DNA of 34,803 nt from a phage: NCBI GenBank assembly GCA_021149145.1, contig GCA_021149145.1_4322.1. One strand, written 5' to 3'. Under the pieces are notes generated by a model. That model was not told the DNA's origin and made no database searches. It was given only the letters and a program-made list of their open reading frames with translations. The position numbers and the translations under genes are program-made. Positions 21,904 through 27,059 of the stretch are shown here, in pieces. The first letter of the stretch is position 1, and every line of letters starts with the position of its first letter.

Positions 21904-22124
21904 TATTCAAAATCCCCCTTGCAATCTTTCTTCATCTCTGCAATATCTGCAACCATGCGGTCGCGCCACGTCTCGATATCAGTTCGCAAGTAATCTTCTT
22001 CAAAACTGTAATCAAGGCACCGGGCCAAATCCCAAACATCACCTTTATATCCAGCCTTGTGTAATTCCTGGGCCGCCATCGCCTGAAAGAGTTCCCATTG
22101 CTTGTCAAAAGTTAAAATTGCCAT
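21903..22124 (-). CDS. Hypothetical protein (73 aa)
   Basis: ORF in the coupled small-gene chain. Confidence 0.45.
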   Translation of the reverse strand: MAILTFDKQWELFQAMAAQELHKAGYKGDVWDLARCLDYSFEEDYLRTDIETWRDRMVADIAEMKKDCKGDFE

Positions 22125-22129
22125 TACTC

Positions 22130-22324
22130 CTATACCTCATCAAATTTTTCGCCGAATTCGTTTTTAACAGTTTCCAGATCATGTTTGTAAGTTGGGCTAA
22201 CTTCGAATGCATATGTGCAGTCTTCAATGTCAACCAAAACATAACCATCTTCAGTTACTTGCATCTCGTAGATGTAGCCAGTCTTGCGTGATTCGTAGAA
22301 TTTACCAGTATAGATAGTAGCCAT
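22130..22324 (-). CDS. Hypothetical protein (64 aa)
   Basis: First gene after motif promoter 22363-22407; GAGAGAAAGAAA-ATG leader. Confidence 0.45.
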   Translation of the reverse strand: MATIYTGKFYESRKTGYIYEMQVTEDGYVLVDIEDCTYAFEVSPTYKHDLETVKNEFGEKFDEV

Positions 22325-22362
22325 TTTCTTTCTCTCTTTGTGTGTTTCGTTTCGATGAGTTG

Positions 22363-22407
22363 ATAATACACCAACTCACCAGTTCGTCTTTGGAAATTCG
22401 TGCTATT
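22363..22407 (-). promoter_or_regulatory. Motif-type promoter (element + TATTAT)
   Basis: Minus strand AATAGCACGAATTTCCAAA, 22 nt, TATTAT, leader ...CTCATCGAAACGAAACACAC; the element's TAG is the VRR-NUC stop codon. Confidence 0.45.
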
Positions 22408-22822
22408 TTCTTATCATCTCTGCGAATGCCGCAAGAAAACCCTCTCTTCCATAAGCCACCGCTGCGAAACCGCCTGATTCACTTACGCTTTTTAGGAATG
22501 ACTTTTGCTCATTGCTAACTGGGCTTGCTTGCGTTTTACCAGCCCTCTTTAACTCTATGGCGCCAAATGGATAACCGCCACGCAATGACTCAGGTATCAG
22601 AAATAAGCAGTCTGACACACCTTTGAGAAGCCCCTTGGCTTGGTCTTTTCTTGCTTGACCAATGCTCTTTTTATTTTCGTTAATCGTGTGCCAGTAAACA
22701 ATCTGCGGATAGTTGTATTTCACCCAATCAGAGCAGAAGATTTGTTCATCGTCTTCCTTTGGGCATGACTTCACCGGTCCGCCATAGAACTCGAGGTAAT
22801 CACCTTTGTCTGTGATTTTCAT
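22403..22822 (-). CDS. VRR-NUC domain nuclease
   Basis: 139 aa; ...DCLFLIPESLRGGYPFGAIELKRAGKTQASPVSNEQKSFL... matches the VRR-NUC pattern (D...E-x-K, GG, S..Q) as I recall it. Confidence 0.55.
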   Translation of the reverse strand: MKITDKGDYLEFYGGPVKSCPKEDDEQIFCSDWVKYNYPQIVYWHTINENKKSIGQARKDQAKGLLKGVSDCLFLIPESLRGGYPFGAIELKRAGKTQASPVSNEQKSFLKSVSESGGFAAVAYGREGFLAAFAEMIRK

Positions 22823-22823
22823 A

Positions 22824-24533
22824 TCAATCCTCCATCGTAAATGATTTGTTGGCGATAATATCTTGAGACTTCTGGTTTTTACGGTGTGTGATTCTCAATG
22901 GGGCACGGAATAGATGTGCATTTGTCATAATCATTCTAGCATTACGCAATCTGCCAATTCTGAATGCCTCATTCCTGTTATCGATGTGTGTTGAGCAGAA
23001 AGCCTTCCATTTAACAGAGCAAACGCGATGGTCTGATTCAGGGAAGAATGTTTCATAAGCTCGGAATCTGTCACCACTGTGAGCCATAACCTCATATGAA
23101 GCAATAATCCCTGACTGGTTCTTTGTTAACCCAATCTTGAAGTCATAAACTCGCAACCAGTCCCCCTTACGATACATTTTTCCTGATAACTTAGCATTCG
23201 GGTCTATGAGCATCTCACCACAGCATCTGCAATTCTTAGCTGCAATATCATTCTTCTCACCGCATCCTTTCTTGATGATAGCTTTGGTCTGTGGGTCCGC
23301 CATATCTTCACACAGTATAAACTGAAAGAAGTGCTCGCAACGCTTACCGTCAATTACATTATTACAACGCCGTGCGAACGGAGAGTTCTCATAAGAACAT
23401 GCCGGGCATACCCTAGGTTCATCACCTCCTTTCCTTGATGACTTAAACTTCTGGTCCTGAACTTCTTCTATAATTGGGTCAAAGTAAAGCTCTGCCATAT
23501 CGTCAAGCGTTCCGGCGAAATCGAGAACAACATGGTCTTCTTTTACCATCCCTGAATCCTTGTGTTTTTTCTTAAGAATTCGCATACCACGACCAAGCAA
23601 CTGAATGAGTAGAGTAATGCTACCAACCTTCCTCAGGATAATGCTTGTATCCCACGGGGGGCAGTTTACGCCAGTTGTGAGGCAACCAATCTGAAATATG
23701 AACTTATATTCTCCGTTGGCTGCCTTCTCAAGTATCTCTCTACGCTTCTTCTCACCAGTGGAGTTGGTAACTATCGCCCAAGTAACACCTTCTGGAAGTG
23801 CGGCTGCCGCCTCCTCGCAATGCCGTTTGCCAGCGCAAGTTACCAATGCAGCATTCCTTGTTTCCATAAACTTAGCAGCAAATCTCATTATCTTTTGTGT
23901 CATCGTTTGGTTTTCGTGAATCTTTGCAGCCATCGCATCCATTTCTTTCTTGCTGAAGTCCTTAACCCCATCACTTCCATCAGGAGTGAACTCACTAAGG
24001 TCGTAGCCCAAATCACCAACTTCACCGTAGACAGTAGGAACAACGAACCCCAAGTCAACAAGGTAGCTGGTTGGCACTTGCATTACAGTTTTGCGCCAGA
24101 ATCCACGGACATTTGGGTTACTAACTACAATGTGGTCGTTGTTACGGTACGGGCTACCAGTTAACCCAAAGATACGAAGTTCGCGACCGTACTTCTCCCT
24201 GCATCGACGCTTCATTTCGGTAATGATTAACGTGTATTGCGCGCGACCAGTGCCAAGAAGCCCGGTATTCACACCATCCTTAAAGACCATCTCACCATTC
24301 TTCGTGCTCATCTGCTCGAATGTTTCCTCATTCTCTTCAGCTTCTACGATATCCATATGGTCCACCATGTGGCAATTATGTGCCACGACCCCGTCAGCAA
24401 TGAAATTATGGTGCTCAGGCATCTCTATATCCCAAACAAGTTCCTTGCCAATTGGTGAGATGTCTTTAATTTTGCTTGATTTTGTATTCCACGCCATTTT
24501 CCATGTGCTTACTAATTCTCTTAAAAAACTCAT
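22824..24533 (-). CDS. Helicase, C-terminal part: 53-aa intein C-terminal segment (blocks F/G) fused to C-extein
   Basis: Starts with ATG right after an in-frame stop; ...ELVWDIEMPEHHNFIADGVVAHN|CHMVDHMD...; C-extein carries helicase motif VI-like QLLGRGMR and a C-terminal Cys cluster. Confidence 0.7.
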   Translation of the reverse strand: MSFLRELVSTWKMAWNTKSSKIKDISPIGKELVWDIEMPEHHNFIADGVVAHNCHMVDHMDIVEAEENEETFEQMSTKNGEMVFKDGVNTGLLGTGRAQYTLIITEMKRRCREKYGRELRIFGLTGSPYRNNDHIVVSNPNVRGFWRKTVMQVPTSYLVDLGFVVPTVYGEVGDLGYDLSEFTPDGSDGVKDFSKKEMDAMAAKIHENQTMTQKIMRFAAKFMETRNAALVTCAGKRHCEEAAAALPEGVTWAIVTNSTGEKKRREILEKAANGEYKFIFQIGCLTTGVNCPPWDTSIILRKVGSITLLIQLLGRGMRILKKKHKDSGMVKEDHVVLDFAGTLDDMAELYFDPIIEEVQDQKFKSSRKGGDEPRVCPACSYENSPFARRCNNVIDGKRCEHFFQFILCEDMADPQTKAIIKKGCGEKNDIAAKNCRCCGEMLIDPNAKLSGKMYRKGDWLRVYDFKIGLTKNQSGIIASYEVMAHSGDRFRAYETFFPESDHRVCSVKWKAFCSTHIDNRNEAFRIGRLRNARMIMTNAHLFRAPLRITHRKNQKSQDIIANKSFTMED

Positions 24534-25514
24534 CTTGTGCCGACCTCGTTGTTATTGATACTGAGTAAAGCTCTCTCTTTTTCTTGCCGCCAATATAGCT
24601 TCTAACCTTAACTCCGTCATTAGCAATAAATGCTATTAGCGCATCAACTACTGATTGAACTTCACTCCTGCTAAATGATTCGGTGTGGATTTCTACAACC
24701 CTCTTCCCTGAGCTTACAGTGCAATGACCATCATCACCAAAGTAAGCAGCCCAACCAACTGGATCAAGCTCTCTGCATATCTTTCCAATATCGTAACCAT
24801 CCTTAGAATTTCCGTACTTATCAGCATATGAATCCAGAACTTTCGTACATGATGTTGATACGCAAAACCAGTTGTCGCCAAATCCAGGGTTTTTCTTCTC
24901 CCTGTATCTAGGGTTTAGTTTTGCAAACCTTTCAACCTTGCTTAGTGCGTGCTCCTTATTTCCAATATTCCAAGATAGCCTATGCGTTCCTTTTTCTGTA
25001 TTTTTAATCAAGCAACCATCACCAGCCATTGCCGCAAGAATGTTTTGATGTAAAAAGTCATCAACCTCCATTGATGGGTTGACGGTTGAATTATGATGCC
25101 CCGTTCTGTAATCCAAATAGAAATCGAAAGGGTTCTTAAGAAGTACGCCTAACCCCTTGCTTGAATGCGGCATAACTTTTTCACCACAGCCACACTTGCA
25201 CGCAGGAGCTTTTTCGTAAATTTGTCCTGCGAGCCGTCTAGCGACAGATTCATCCCAATACGAAGTTTTCCCGCTCCTACCCAGCAGCCGTTCGAATAAA
25301 GTTTGTGTGTACTCGTGCATTTTATTTCCTCTCCGCTTTCTAATTTAATTGATGATACATGTCTTACACCATTAGTAAAAACTCTTTTTGGCTTATGATA
25401 GAAGTAATCACCAGTGCTTTCGTTTATGCATTTTATTTTATGATTGATAAGGTCTTCGCTATCAATCCTCATCATCCCTGAATCGGTGGTTATCATCGTG
25501 TCTCCAGTTAAGCA
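24375..25514 (-). mobile_element. Intein (1140 nt, 380 codons) in helicase motif II, with LAGLIDADG endonuclease encoded in a shifted frame
   Basis: Block A CLTGDTMITT directly after ...VIAIDE; block B KCTSTHKLY; blocks F/G VWDIEMPEHHNFIADGVVAHN then C; joined exteins read DE-CH. The two splicing domains share one frame; the endonuclease ORF is in another. Confidence 0.75.
24466..25320 (-). CDS. LAGLIDADG homing endonuclease (intein-internal or free-standing)
   Basis: 284-codon ORF with its own ATG, two LAGLIDADG-like motifs (ILAAMAGDGCL, AAYFGDDGHC); overlaps the flanking ORFs by 172 and 68 nt. Confidence 0.65.
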   Translation of the reverse strand: MHEYTQTLFERLLGRSGKTSYWDESVARRLAGQIYEKAPACKCGCGEKVMPHSSKGLGVLLKNPFDFYLDYRTGHHNSTVNPSMEVDDFLHQNILAAMAGDGCLIKNTEKGTHRLSWNIGNKEHALSKVERFAKLNPRYREKKNPGFGDNWFCVSTSCTKVLDSYADKYGNSKDGYDIGKICRELDPVGWAAYFGDDGHCTVSSGKRVVEIHTESFSRSEVQSVVDALIAFIANDGVKVRSYIGGKKKRELYSVSITTRSAQDEFFKRISKHMENGVEYKIKQN

Positions 25515-25958
25515 CTCATCTATCGCGATAACAGCAGGAGCATAGTCACCAAGCCCCTTAAACAAGCCGTTAGCAGCCGTTCCCTCACTAGCCACTATGG
25601 TTGGATAGTAAACTGATTTAACGTTAAGGCCAGCGCAATAGACGCTATTACGGATGCCGAAATTACGAAGTTCCTCTGCGTTCTGGCTGACAATCTCTGA
25701 CTGGCGAGATAGGACCATGTAAGGAAGGCCAAGCTGTTCCATTCGTTTCCCAATCATGGCGAGAATAATCGTCTTGCCAGCCGAAACCGATAGGTCTGCT
25801 ATGAATGGCGCTTCGTACTTGCCAATAGCCTTTCCGATTGCGTCAAATGTCACGCACTGGAATGGGTATGGTGTGATTTCTCCGAACTGATAATCATTTT
25901 GAATCTGCTTGATTTTATCTTGGTCAAAGTTTGCTACTAAGCGTTCTACTGGAAGCAT
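25149..25958 (-). CDS. Helicase, N-terminal part: N-extein (148 aa, Walker A SVSAGKT, Walker B IAIDE) fused to 121-aa intein N-terminal segment
   Basis: ORF ends at TAG after intein blocks A and B; same frame as the C-terminal helicase ORF. Confidence 0.7.
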   Translation of the reverse strand: MLPVERLVANFDQDKIKQIQNDYQFGEITPYPFQCVTFDAIGKAIGKYEAPFIADLSVSAGKTIILAMIGKRMEQLGLPYMVLSRQSEIVSQNAEELRNFGIRNSVYCAGLNVKSVYYPTIVASEGTAANGLFKGLGDYAPAVIAIDECLTGDTMITTDSGMMRIDSEDLINHKIKCINESTGDYFYHKPKRVFTNGVRHVSSIKLESGEEIKCTSTHKLYSNGCWVGAGKLRIGMNLSLDGSQDKFTKKLLRASVAVVKKLCRIQARG

Positions 25959-25999
25959 TTTAAATATCCTGATAGTTCTTTAGTTCGTTGCATTGATGT

Positions 26000-26043
26000 A
26001 TAATAACAGCCATAGAACCCATTGTTTAACAAAAAGTGCTATT
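26000..26043 (-). promoter_or_regulatory. Motif-type promoter (variant element + TATTAT) upstream of helicase
   Basis: Minus strand AATAGCACTTTTTGTTAAA, 21 nt, TATTAT, ~40 nt before the helicase ATG at 25958; divergent from the HTH gene. Confidence 0.4.
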
Positions 26044-26054
26044 GAGGTAATGAG

Positions 26055-26528
26055 ATGTGTAAAATTGACAAGCGAACTATTAACGGCAATAACGGGACCG
26101 TCCGCACGCAAGACAAGAAGCAACGCAAGCGACCTTCAGGCTACTACGTATTGAAAGATGAAGTAAAGGCTGGTCTACGCGCGCGTCTGGAAATGATTCT
26201 TGATTTCTACGGCACGAAAGCCAATATCGCCAAGCAGTTAAATGTATCTCACCAGACTGTAGAGCAATGGTTTAATCGCGGGATGATTTCGGCTCGAGGG
26301 GCTCAGAGAGCGCATAATGCGTACAAGCGAAATAAGGAAGGGTTCCGAGCTACATTCTGCCGACCAGACCTGCAATTCGACGGTAACGGAAAGCCGCTAA
26401 CACTTCGATGCAAGAAACGCCATATGCTTCGCGTAGTTACCGAGGCAGAACTAGCAATAAAACCACCCTGTCGACCGTGGCGCAAGAATAAGATTGCTAA
26501 CGAAGCAGCACGAAAAGCTAAAGGGTAA
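26055..26528 (+). CDS. Putative HTH DNA-binding protein (157 aa)
   Basis: Basic N-terminus; HTH-like segment TKANIAKQLNVSHQTVEQWFNRGMIS; first rightward gene from a divergent region. Confidence 0.45.
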   Translation: MCKIDKRTINGNNGTVRTQDKKQRKRPSGYYVLKDEVKAGLRARLEMILDFYGTKANIAKQLNVSHQTVEQWFNRGMISARGAQRAHNAYKRNKEGFRATFCRPDLQFDGNGKPLTLRCKKRHMLRVVTEAELAIKPPCRPWRKNKIANEAARKAKG

Positions 26529-26579
26529 GTGATTGGATGTGCCATAATAGGCACATCCTTTTTTATTGGAGAGAAGAAA

Positions 26580-27059
26580 ATGAACTGGCATGATTATTTT
26601 TACTATGTAGATGGCAAATTGCATTGGAAGATTAGCACTGCAAGACGTGTTAAGGTTGGCGATGAGTGCAACTCACTATCTACATCTGGCTATTACAAAG
26701 TGTCTGTTAATGGCTTTAGGACTTATGTACATAGAGTTGTGTGGGAGATGTTTAATGGATAACTTCAAAATGGCGACTACATTGATCATATAAACCATAA
26801 CAAATTAGATAACAGAATAGAAAACCTAAGAGTAACAACAAATCAAGGTAACTCAAGAAATTGCAAGCTTAGCGTTTTATCAACAACTGGTTATTGTGGA
26901 GTGGCAAAGCTAAATCACGGAAAATTTAAGGCTCACATCACGGTTGACGGCAAGCAGCTACACCTTGGTAACTTCGATACTCCAGAACGGGCGTATAAAG
27001 TAAGAATTGAAGCAGAGAGAAAATACAACTTTCACGAAAATAACGGGTTAAGCAAATGA
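26580..27059 (+). pseudogene. HNH-AP2-type homing endonuclease interrupted by an in-frame TAA (26760-26762)
   Basis: GGAGAGAAG RBS; MNWHDYFYYVDGKLHWK...HRVVWEMFNG, TAA, then same frame LQNGDYIDHINHNKLDNRIENLRVTTNQGNSRN (HNH) and an AP2-like tail; stop overlaps primase ATG (ATGA). Confidence 0.6.

Follow-up and report, generated by a model that had tools for sequence, protein, structure and literature searches.

A probable fractured gene with a LAGLIDADG endonuclease: a split-intein helicase gene in phages, with a free-standing homing endonuclease gene between its halves

The closest described counterparts of the locus reported here are the fractured genes, known from the gp41-1, NrdJ-1 and IMPDH-1 split inteins of the Global Ocean Sampling (GOS) metagenomes (Dassa, London, Stoddard and Pietrokovski, 2009, Nucleic Acids Research, PMC2677866). 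Their endonucleases are of the GIY-YIG or Vsr-like type, with a 5' untranslated region (UTR) and a hairpin, the endonuclease open reading frame (ORF) overlaps that of the C-terminal intein half (IntC) by 6–69 bp, and a free-standing endonuclease was proposed to have invaded a mini-intein (Dassa et al., 2009). Inteins with out-of-frame or antisense endonucleases were later described in actinobacteriophages, for which the capture of a free-standing endonuclease was proposed and evidence of continued transfer was given, and the Synechocystis DnaX intein was noted to carry an antisense LAGLIDADG gene (Gosselin, Arsenault and Gogarten, 2025, bioRxiv 10.1101/2025.01.02.630785). Here, we analyse a 34,803-nt stretch of phage DNA (GenBank assembly GCA_021149145.1, contig GCA_021149145.1_4322.1; hereafter, the window), a contig of a Drexlerviridae (Braunvirinae) phage that the protein database places in an E. 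coli assembly, in which a superfamily 2 (SF2) DExH helicase gene on the minus strand is broken after motif II (DE/CH, the slash marking the insertion point) by a class-1 intein. With high confidence, we read this locus as a fractured gene, in which a natural split intein would rebuild the helicase by trans-splicing and a putative I-SceI-like homing endonuclease is encoded by a free-standing gene. Literature searches returned no description of this split helicase intein family, and the paper describing the genus Ymer makes no mention of inteins or homing endonucleases.

The intein occupies positions 25514..24375 of the minus strand (1140 nt, or 380 codons) and is coded by three overlapping ORFs (Table 1). 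The two ORFs that carry the helicase segments, the N-extein with the N-terminal intein half (IntN) and IntC with the C-extein, lie in one frame, the ORF of the LAGLIDADG endonuclease lies in the -1 frame, and frame 0 contains 10 stop codons within the intein, so that no open frame joins the N and C halves. A preliminary description of this DNA had read most of this layout correctly: the N-terminal ORF does run through PAVIAIDE into CLTGDTMITT and KCTSTHKLY and stops 121 codons into the intein, blocks A, B and F/G and the DE-CH junction had been rightly assigned, and the common frame of the helicase ORFs, the intein length and the presence of a 284-codon LAGLIDADG ORF that overlaps both in another frame were all confirmed. 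One detail of the C-terminal ORF has to be amended; its 53 intein codons end in VWDIEMPEHHNFIADGVVAHN, followed by CHMVDHMD, as had been described, but its ATG does not stand directly behind an in-frame stop, being located six codons (QRGRHK) downstream. In Pfam, Intein_splicing matched both halves, each under the curated cutoff, Helicase_C matched the C-terminal ORF and LAGLIDADG_2 matched the middle ORF (29.8 bits, cutoff 25). The PHROGs assignments at the locus, including phrog_11023 for the middle ORF, agree with those of Pfam.

The same layout was observed in other phages. In ES (OR466728) and AN_ECEAS (PP944860) the whole 3135-nt region aligns without gaps, with 94.8% identity, the same ORFs and the same frames, and a tblastn search with the endonuclease retrieved five Pectobacterium phages (Amona, Ymer, Koroua, Abuela and Sabo; about 42% identity over residues 1–281), which have the three-ORF layout inside the helicase. 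Further loci were collected from protein-database matches, IMG/VR contigs and a DNA-pattern scan of metagenomes, giving about 25 endonuclease-bearing loci from about 18 lineages, in which the identity of the endonuclease goes down to 36%. The insertion site is always DE/C and the length of the element is always a multiple of 3 (1122–1155 nt); IntN has 118–125 aa, and the endonuclease, of 277–293 aa, is always in the -1 frame, with its ATG at intein nt 191–194. The overlaps extend over 163–184 nt on the N side and 68–95 nt on the C side, and frame 0 contains 6–14 stops inside the intein. The searches turned up no contiguous, in-frame version of the element. Since the frame logic is reproduced in the independently sequenced ES and in about 25 further loci, the three-ORF arrangement is far beyond chance.

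As a separate observation, the element is exactly 1140 nt long both in the coliphage window (25514-24375) and in the Pectobacterium phages (Amona, locus L004, 3310-4449), a match that stands despite the low identity of the endonucleases (about 42%) and several compensating codon indels.

The start codon of the endonuclease is maintained by selection. This ATG is formed as xxA+TG, by the last A of the codon that precedes the block-B Cys and the TG of the Cys codon itself, and the preceding codon, which specifies K, R, T or E depending on the lineage, is nonetheless always AAA, AGA, ACA or GAA, with a final A. Met1 is also the sole methionine of the endonuclease kept in all lineages, five loci having no other within the first 100 residues. 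It is this retention of A+TG across K/R/T/E codons, together with the universality of Met1, that argues for selection on the start, which is preceded in most lineages by a Shine-Dalgarno (SD) sequence GGAGAGG, GGGGAGG or GGTGAGG. In the NCBI annotation and in the output of most metagenome gene callers the endonuclease begins at the internal Met50 (235 aa; window 25173-24466), which avoids the overlap; we rejected Met50 as the start, since it is missing in several lineages. For IntC, every lineage has an ATG 12–19 codons 5' of the 'AWN' motif, with an SD-like purine run before it. An internal methionine (TW.MAWNTK) was also considered as the IntC start and rejected, because T, K, Q or R is found at that position in six lineages; as the internal Met is not conserved, the upstream ATG was assigned as the start of IntC.

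All three pieces are subject to purifying selection, each in the frame assigned to it. The pairwise ratio of nonsynonymous to synonymous substitution rates (dN/dS) is 0.04–0.38 in the IntN-only stretch, read in frame 0, and about 0.08–0.12 in the endonuclease-only stretch, read in the -1 frame, and in the IntC-only stretch the proportion of nonsynonymous differences (pN) is 0.06–0.22, against a saturated proportion of synonymous differences (pS). In both overlaps the synonymous rate is lowered in both frames. The codon-phase entropy, calculated over 12 lineages, resolves the N-side overlap into two zones: over the first 87 nt, from block B through N4, the third positions of frame 0 are the most variable (0.98 vs 0.57/0.60), and in the next 66 nt, which code for the IntN tail and the CKCGCG zone of the endonuclease, the variability moves to the third positions of the endonuclease. 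Constraint thus passes, along this overlap, from frame 0 to the endonuclease frame. The last 84 nt of the intein have a pure frame-0 third-position signature (1.28 vs 0.61/0.38).

The two intein halves contain the residues expected of a class-1 intein, Cys1 (CLTGD) and the block-B CTSTH (TxxH). In an alignment of 7 lineages C1, T67, H70, D156, H162/163, N164, F165, H173, N174 and C175 are invariant, which correspond to Cys1, the Thr and His of block B, the Asp of block F, the HHNF motif, the terminal His-Asn and Cys+1; blocks F/G read VWDIEMPEHHNFIADGVVAHN followed by C, and C1, T67 and H70 are present at all loci. The joined cores of IntN and IntC match, end to end, the cyanobacterial Spl DnaX mini-intein in the PDB (7cfv; E=9e-16, query residues 2-128), the closest intein of solved structure, of which IntN alone covers residues 3-~100, and they also match the DnaB, RecA, gp41-1 and DnaE inteins in the same database. 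IntN and IntC are separated at the canonical endonuclease-insertion/split loop, which lies after block N4 and before block F. The joined exteins, in turn, constitute a protein of 664 aa, the same length as the intein-free helicase of phage TR1, and the two align with no gap at 83.4% identity. The splicing domain was found to have close relatives in cultured phages only in split form, the contiguous mini-inteins of other genes being <=31% identical. IntN alone gave no matches when used as the query of a word-index homology search.

Contiguous mini-inteins of 423 nt in DnaB-like helicases (metagenome loci L030, L037, L039 and L042) are unrelated to the split family, yet contain its exact block-F DIEMP.HHNF, which is also carried by larger contiguous inteins in other genes (L029, L032-L034, L038 and L040). 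Because it is common to unrelated contiguous inteins, this form of block F is not specific to the split family.

By sequence and modelled fold, the endonuclease is of the free-standing or intron type, an I-SceI-like monomer with two motifs. Its AlphaFold 2 (AF2) model (predicted local distance difference test, pLDDT, 86.6; predicted template modelling score, pTM, 0.80) was compared with known structures using Foldseek, which gave two intron-encoded monomers as the best matches, I-WcaI (E=5e-10, template modelling score TMt 0.71) and I-SceI (TMt 0.67); the intein-resident PI-SceI is a weaker structural match (TMt 0.33 vs 0.71 for I-WcaI). An exhaustive profile search of 1.84 billion representatives retrieved 21 cluster representatives as close relatives (E<=1e-30), all with 124-304 aa, and long proteins were found only among distant LAGLIDADG relatives. 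The assignment to the free-standing type rests on the match to LAGLIDADG_2 and on these two results, the fold being closest to I-WcaI/I-SceI and the close relatives never occurring in long proteins. In the two LAGLIDADG motifs G100, D101, G102, G195, D196, D197 and G198, among them the acidic residues, are invariant in 16 sequences. Residues 41-75 (25200-25096) include an invariant C-x-C-G-C-G and an invariant His75, which could constitute a CCCH zinc site; the AlphaFold confidence in this region is only moderate (57-83).

Two independent derivatives, loci L025 and L035, have lost the core of the endonuclease through deletions that are not multiples of three. In L025 the element has 626 nt, with a 55-aa 5' stub of the endonuclease, a 3' remnant in the third frame and an 83-nt gap; L035 belongs to a different lineage (its IntN is 95% identical to that of L013) and has an element of 605 nt, with other endpoints and a 59-nt gap. 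In both, the N-extein-IntN and IntC-C-extein ORFs are complete and no catalytic residue is lost; the two ORFs now lie in different frames, with stops in every frame between them. The split halves appear, from these loci, to persist independently of the endonuclease and of their frame relation.

The distribution of the element also agrees with the presence of a homing endonuclease. The helicase junction peptide matched 1087 phage records, of which 1080 are uninterrupted, and the element was found in only 7 records of the phage collection. The inteins of the window and ES differ at 4/1140 positions (99.6% identity), and their exteins differ by 11.5% (N-extein) and 6.9% (C-extein); about 790 nt on the 3' side of the intein (window 24374-23585) are also near-identical, followed by a sharp drop in identity, and on the 5' side the first difference is found at 26 nt. 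Similarly, the inteins of L010 and L012 are 100% identical, with C-exteins at 85%. The Pectobacterium phages differ in this respect, their inteins having diverged together with the exteins (about 5%). Since the intein is 99.6-100% identical where the exteins differ by 7-15%, recent homing, or horizontal transfer, of the intein is indicated, and the sporadic spread, the discordance between intein and exteins and the co-conversion are as would be expected of an actively homing element. The asymmetry of co-conversion (~790 nt downstream and ~25 nt upstream) may result from the position of the cut site or from the polarity of repair.

The nearest intein-free alleles (TR1 and P0165) read DEAH, whereas the invaded alleles read DECH, which implies that the Cys codon travels with the element; the intein-free site of TR1 reads gttatcgcaatagatgag immediately followed by gcacacatggtggaccac. 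We considered the +1 Cys as an adaptation specific to splicing and rejected it as a general argument, since more distant intein-free helicases are natively DECH. The purifying selection on the exteins of the window and ES was likewise rejected as proof of function after the invasion, since the intein arrived after most of that divergence.

We propose that three proteins would be made at this locus, probably from one transcript: N-extein-IntN (29.7 kDa), the endonuclease (32.0 kDa) and IntC-C-extein (64.7 kDa). Translation of the endonuclease, in the -1 frame, would start at the ATG in intein block B, served by a dedicated SD, and that of IntC-C-extein at the ATG within the 3' end of the endonuclease ORF. 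IntN and IntC would then associate, completing the HINT fold, and trans-splice the exteins into a 664-aa, 74.8-kDa DECH replication helicase with the junction peptide GLGDYAPAVIAIDECHMVDHMDIVEAEENEETFEQMSTK. The endonuclease, in turn, would cut intein-free helicase alleles of co-infecting phages, and repair would copy the whole element together with flanking extein sequence (homing). Consensus scans for promoters and terminators at the locus scored no better than chance; this fits a single transcript and is uninformative on internal transcription signals.

Several observations weigh against this interpretation. We infer from sequence that trans-splicing, the activity and target of the endonuclease, co-transcription and translational coupling through the overlaps take place. 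Each intein half alone falls below the Pfam cutoff for Intein_splicing, as expected of half-domains, the SD of the IntC ORF is weak and variable, and the first ~29 residues of the endonuclease evolve under the constraint of IntN rather than their own. The derivatives L025 and L035 are single metagenome contigs each, and their deletions are suggested to be recent by the good preservation of the unconstrained endonuclease remnants. In addition, the N and C ORFs share a frame in all endonuclease-bearing loci, as the descendant of a contiguous intein would show; this common frame is a 1-in-3 chance outcome, frozen because the overlaps and the selection on the endonuclease forbid non-triplet indels anywhere in the element.

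The preliminary description had left three explanations side by side, and the one that is now strongly supported is a split intein with a free-standing endonuclease between its halves, given the endonuclease's own ATG and SD, the ~18 lineages and the derivatives L025 and L035. An artefact of sequencing or assembly, i.e., two single-base indels in an ordinary in-frame intein, could not have been dismissed from the window alone, the length of the element being divisible by 3, but it is excluded by the recurrence of the same frames in ES and AN_ECEAS (ungapped), in the five Pectobacterium phages and in about 20 contigs drawn from metagenomes and IMG/VR, which come from separate projects, and also by the number of frame-0 stops across the endonuclease region, 6-14 rather than one or two. 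The third explanation was a contiguous intein with two compensating frameshifts. Taken as a 380-aa LAGLIDADG intein that is spliced in cis and read through programmed -1 (IntN/endonuclease) and +1 (endonuclease/IntC) frameshifts, it would account for the common frame of the N and C ORFs, for an element length divisible by 3 wherever the endonuclease is present and for the location of the endonuclease exactly in the -1 frame, and a GGGAAAA heptamer is in fact present in the window and 3 other lineages, as is G AAA AAG in the window. Nevertheless, we consider it very improbable. No slippery heptamer is conserved, GGGAAAA is missing in 4/8 lineages, and it is located before block N4, so that slippage at this heptamer would cut the HINT domain short. 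The endonuclease starts at an invariant ATG of its own, preceded by an SD, and its fold is I-SceI/I-WcaI-like rather than intein-type; none of its close relatives is part of a long protein, and IntC also has a separate ATG. Moreover, L025 and L035, with N and C in different frames and stops in all frames between them, argue against such a mechanism, and the shared frame of the remaining loci is explained by overlaps that forbid non-triplet indels.

It is also conceivable that no protein splicing takes place, the helicase being dispensable or dead, or its fragments being held in a non-covalent complex by the intein halves, and that the element is a selfish endonuclease cassette. The splicing proposed here is, indeed, deduced from sequence, the divergence between the exteins of the window and ES largely predates the invasion, giving no proof of selection after it, and many intein-free DECH helicases have the +1 Cys natively. 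We regard this possibility as quite unlikely, however, because the splicing residues (Cys1, block-B Thr/His, block-F/G His/Asn and Cys+1) are invariant across about 18 lineages and dN/dS is low on both IntN and IntC, which argues for catalysis, as they would otherwise not be maintained. In the Pectobacterium phages intein and exteins have co-diverged under purifying selection, the helicase is conserved in 1087 phage records, and the endonuclease-deleted L025 and L035 still keep both halves. Finally, LAGLIDADG_2 and I-SceI-like enzymes are typically encoded in group I introns, and the endonuclease ORF could have been contained in a group I/II intron nested in the intein DNA, with RNA splicing restoring a mini-intein ORF. 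This is scarcely credible: a search for an intron RNA core around the endonuclease ORF gave zero Rfam matches at E<=1 in window 22000-27000, the ORF takes up the entire interval and at either end runs into conserved coding sequence of the intein, and the dual-frame constraint in the overlaps implies that both frames are read from the same mature RNA.

Table 1. Coordinates, in the window, of the helicase segments, the intein halves, the endonuclease and their signals and overlaps.
Feature	Position	Strand	Description
N-terminal ORF (N-extein + IntN)	25958..25149	-	269 aa; ...AVIAIDE/CLTGDTMITT...KCTSTHKLY...; stop 121 codons past Cys
LAGLIDADG endonuclease ORF	25320..24466	-	284 aa; -1 frame relative to helicase
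C-terminal ORF (IntC + C-extein)	24533..22824	-	569 aa; reads MSFLRELVSTWKMAWNTKSSKIKDISPIGKELVWDIEMPEHHNFIADGVVAHN/CHMVDH...; first 53 codons end in VWDIEMPEHHNFIADGVVAHN, then CHMVDHMD
N-extein	25515..25958	-	First 148 helicase codons; Walker A-like SVSAGKT; ends in motif II ...AIDE; weak ResIII match; PHROG 16 DNA helicase; gapless vs TR1
IntN	25149..25514	-	121 codons: Cys1, block A CLTGDTM, block B CTSTH (25319..25305), block N4
IntN tail	within 25149..25514	-	27 aa after N4; TAG stop at 25151..25149
SD of endonuclease	25328..25334	-	GGAGAGG, 7 nt 5' of ATG, inside IntN codons S-G-E
SD-like GAGG of IntC ORF	24544..24547	-	10 nt 5' of ATG; purine-rich SD-like motif at equivalent ATG in other lineages
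IntC	24375..24533	-	53 codons: 20-aa head over endonuclease 3' end, then blocks F/G VWDIEMPEHHNFIADGVVAHN (24437..24375)
C-extein	22824..24374	-	516 helicase codons + stop; from +1 Cys of DE/CH; Helicase_C; C-terminal zinc-ribbon-like motifs
N-side overlap (IntN ORF/endonuclease ORF)	25149..25320	-	172 nt, dual-coding
C-side overlap (endonuclease 3' end/IntC ORF 5' end)	24466..24533	-	68 nt; endonuclease ends in KHMENGVEYKIKQN and stop; IntC ORF begins MSFLRELVSTWKMAWNTKSS
CKCGCG zinc-knuckle-like motif of endonuclease	25200..25183	-	N-terminal extension
LAGLIDADG motif 1	25047..25009	-	ILAAMAGDGCL
LAGLIDADG motif 2	24753..24721	-	WAAYFGDDGHC

Existing annotations mislead at this locus: in ES (L001, 3001-6135) the N-terminal ORF is annotated as 'minor tail protein' and the C-terminal ORF as 'putative single-stranded DNA binding protein', and in AN_ECEAS (L002) no coding sequence is annotated for the endonuclease. 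The window contains a second homing-endonuclease-like gene (26580-27059, plus strand), located between a Cro-like regulator and the primase; it codes for an HNH_3 domain (E=1.2e-17) and, C-terminal to it, an AP2-like region. This gene is likely a pseudogene, since an in-frame TAA (26760-26762) interrupts the HNH_3 domain. At the same position ES and AN_ECEAS have a 58-nt spacer and TR1 has an intact HNH endonuclease.

LAGLIDADG is the endonuclease class of almost all canonical inteins. The locus extends to this class the logic of fractured genes, whose earlier cases came from marine metagenome reads and involved GIY-YIG/Vsr-like enzymes. Its presence in plaque-forming phages of E. coli and Pectobacterium makes homing, trans-splicing and fitness cost genetically testable, and three stages of the homing cycle (empty, invaded and endonuclease-lost) are found within one system. 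It also provides a new, DnaX-related natural split-intein pair (Cys1/Cys+1; IntN ~94-121 aa, IntC ~33-53 aa), which may serve protein ligation, and it exposes systematic misannotation of the helicase halves and the endonuclease; intein surveys that require a single ORF will overlook the whole class. Intein biology is not overturned by these data; what they add is a clean, conserved and experimentally tractable link between free-standing LAGLIDADG genes and inteins.

More tentatively, the family could represent the unfused stage of the canonical partnership between inteins and LAGLIDADG enzymes, as an evolutionarily stable tripartite module and not a transient accident, a possibility that we consider rather doubtful. 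If so, the endonuclease gene would be locked to a split HINT domain by overprinting, with its start and SD in block B and the IntC start in its 3' end, and no more than two single-base indels would separate the module from a standard LAGLIDADG intein of 380 aa, read in one frame. The overlaps would then act as expression control, coupling the translation of the endonuclease to that of the helicase halves, and would be the reason why the three parts move and persist as a unit; ES, AN_ECEAS and the Ymer-like phages of Pectobacterium would be tractable tests of the composite-origin model of inteins.

Compared with the fractured genes (Dassa et al., 2009), the locus described here likewise consists of a gene for a conserved DNA-metabolism enzyme, with adjacent split-intein halves on the same strand and a free-standing endonuclease gene between them, whose 3' end runs into the beginning of the IntC ORF (an overlap of 6-69 bp in the earlier cases and of 68-95 nt in the present family), and in both cases the origin is probably phage. 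The endonuclease, however, is I-SceI-like LAGLIDADG and not GIY-YIG/Vsr-like, the word LAGLIDADG being missing from the main text of that paper, and there is neither a 5' UTR nor a hairpin; instead, the endonuclease starts in block B and shares 163-184 nt with IntN, which makes both junctions dual-coding. The host gene codes for an SF2 DExH helicase, interrupted at motif II, and not for gp41/DnaB, and its carriers include cultured, plaque-forming coliphages and Pectobacterium phages; evidence of recent homing and of endonuclease-deleted derivatives is a further difference. The actinobacteriophage inteins (Gosselin et al., 2025) share with it an endonuclease coded within the intein DNA and outside the intein frame, but those inteins are contiguous, with an intein frame that stays open through the endonuclease region, where 6-14 stops are found here in a truly split intein; their out-of-frame enzyme is EndoVII-like and their LAGLIDADG enzyme is antisense, whereas here LAGLIDADG is coded on the same strand in the -1 frame. 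Together with the antisense LAGLIDADG gene of the Synechocystis DnaX intein, the present family suggests that the DnaX-like HINT lineage may be recurrently associated with unfused LAGLIDADG genes.

The natural split inteins (Npu/Ssp DnaE) and the Spl DnaX intein (7cfv) resemble the family in the split at the canonical endonuclease-insertion loop, the Cys1/Cys+1 chemistry, an IntN of about 100-125 aa with a non-conserved tail and an IntC core of about 35 aa. In DnaE, nevertheless, the halves are coded far apart and without an endonuclease, whereas here they are 0.6 kb apart and overlapped on both sides by the gene of a seemingly active endonuclease, and Spl DnaX is a contiguous intein that was engineered into a mini-intein. 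With the canonical LAGLIDADG inteins (PI-SceI, PI-PfuI and PI-MtuI) the element shares its overall size, equivalent to ~380 aa, and the order HINT-N, LAGLIDADG, HINT-C; it differs from them in that the endonuclease is not fused in frame and belongs to LAGLIDADG_2, the intron or free-standing type, and not to the intein-type LAGLIDADG_3.

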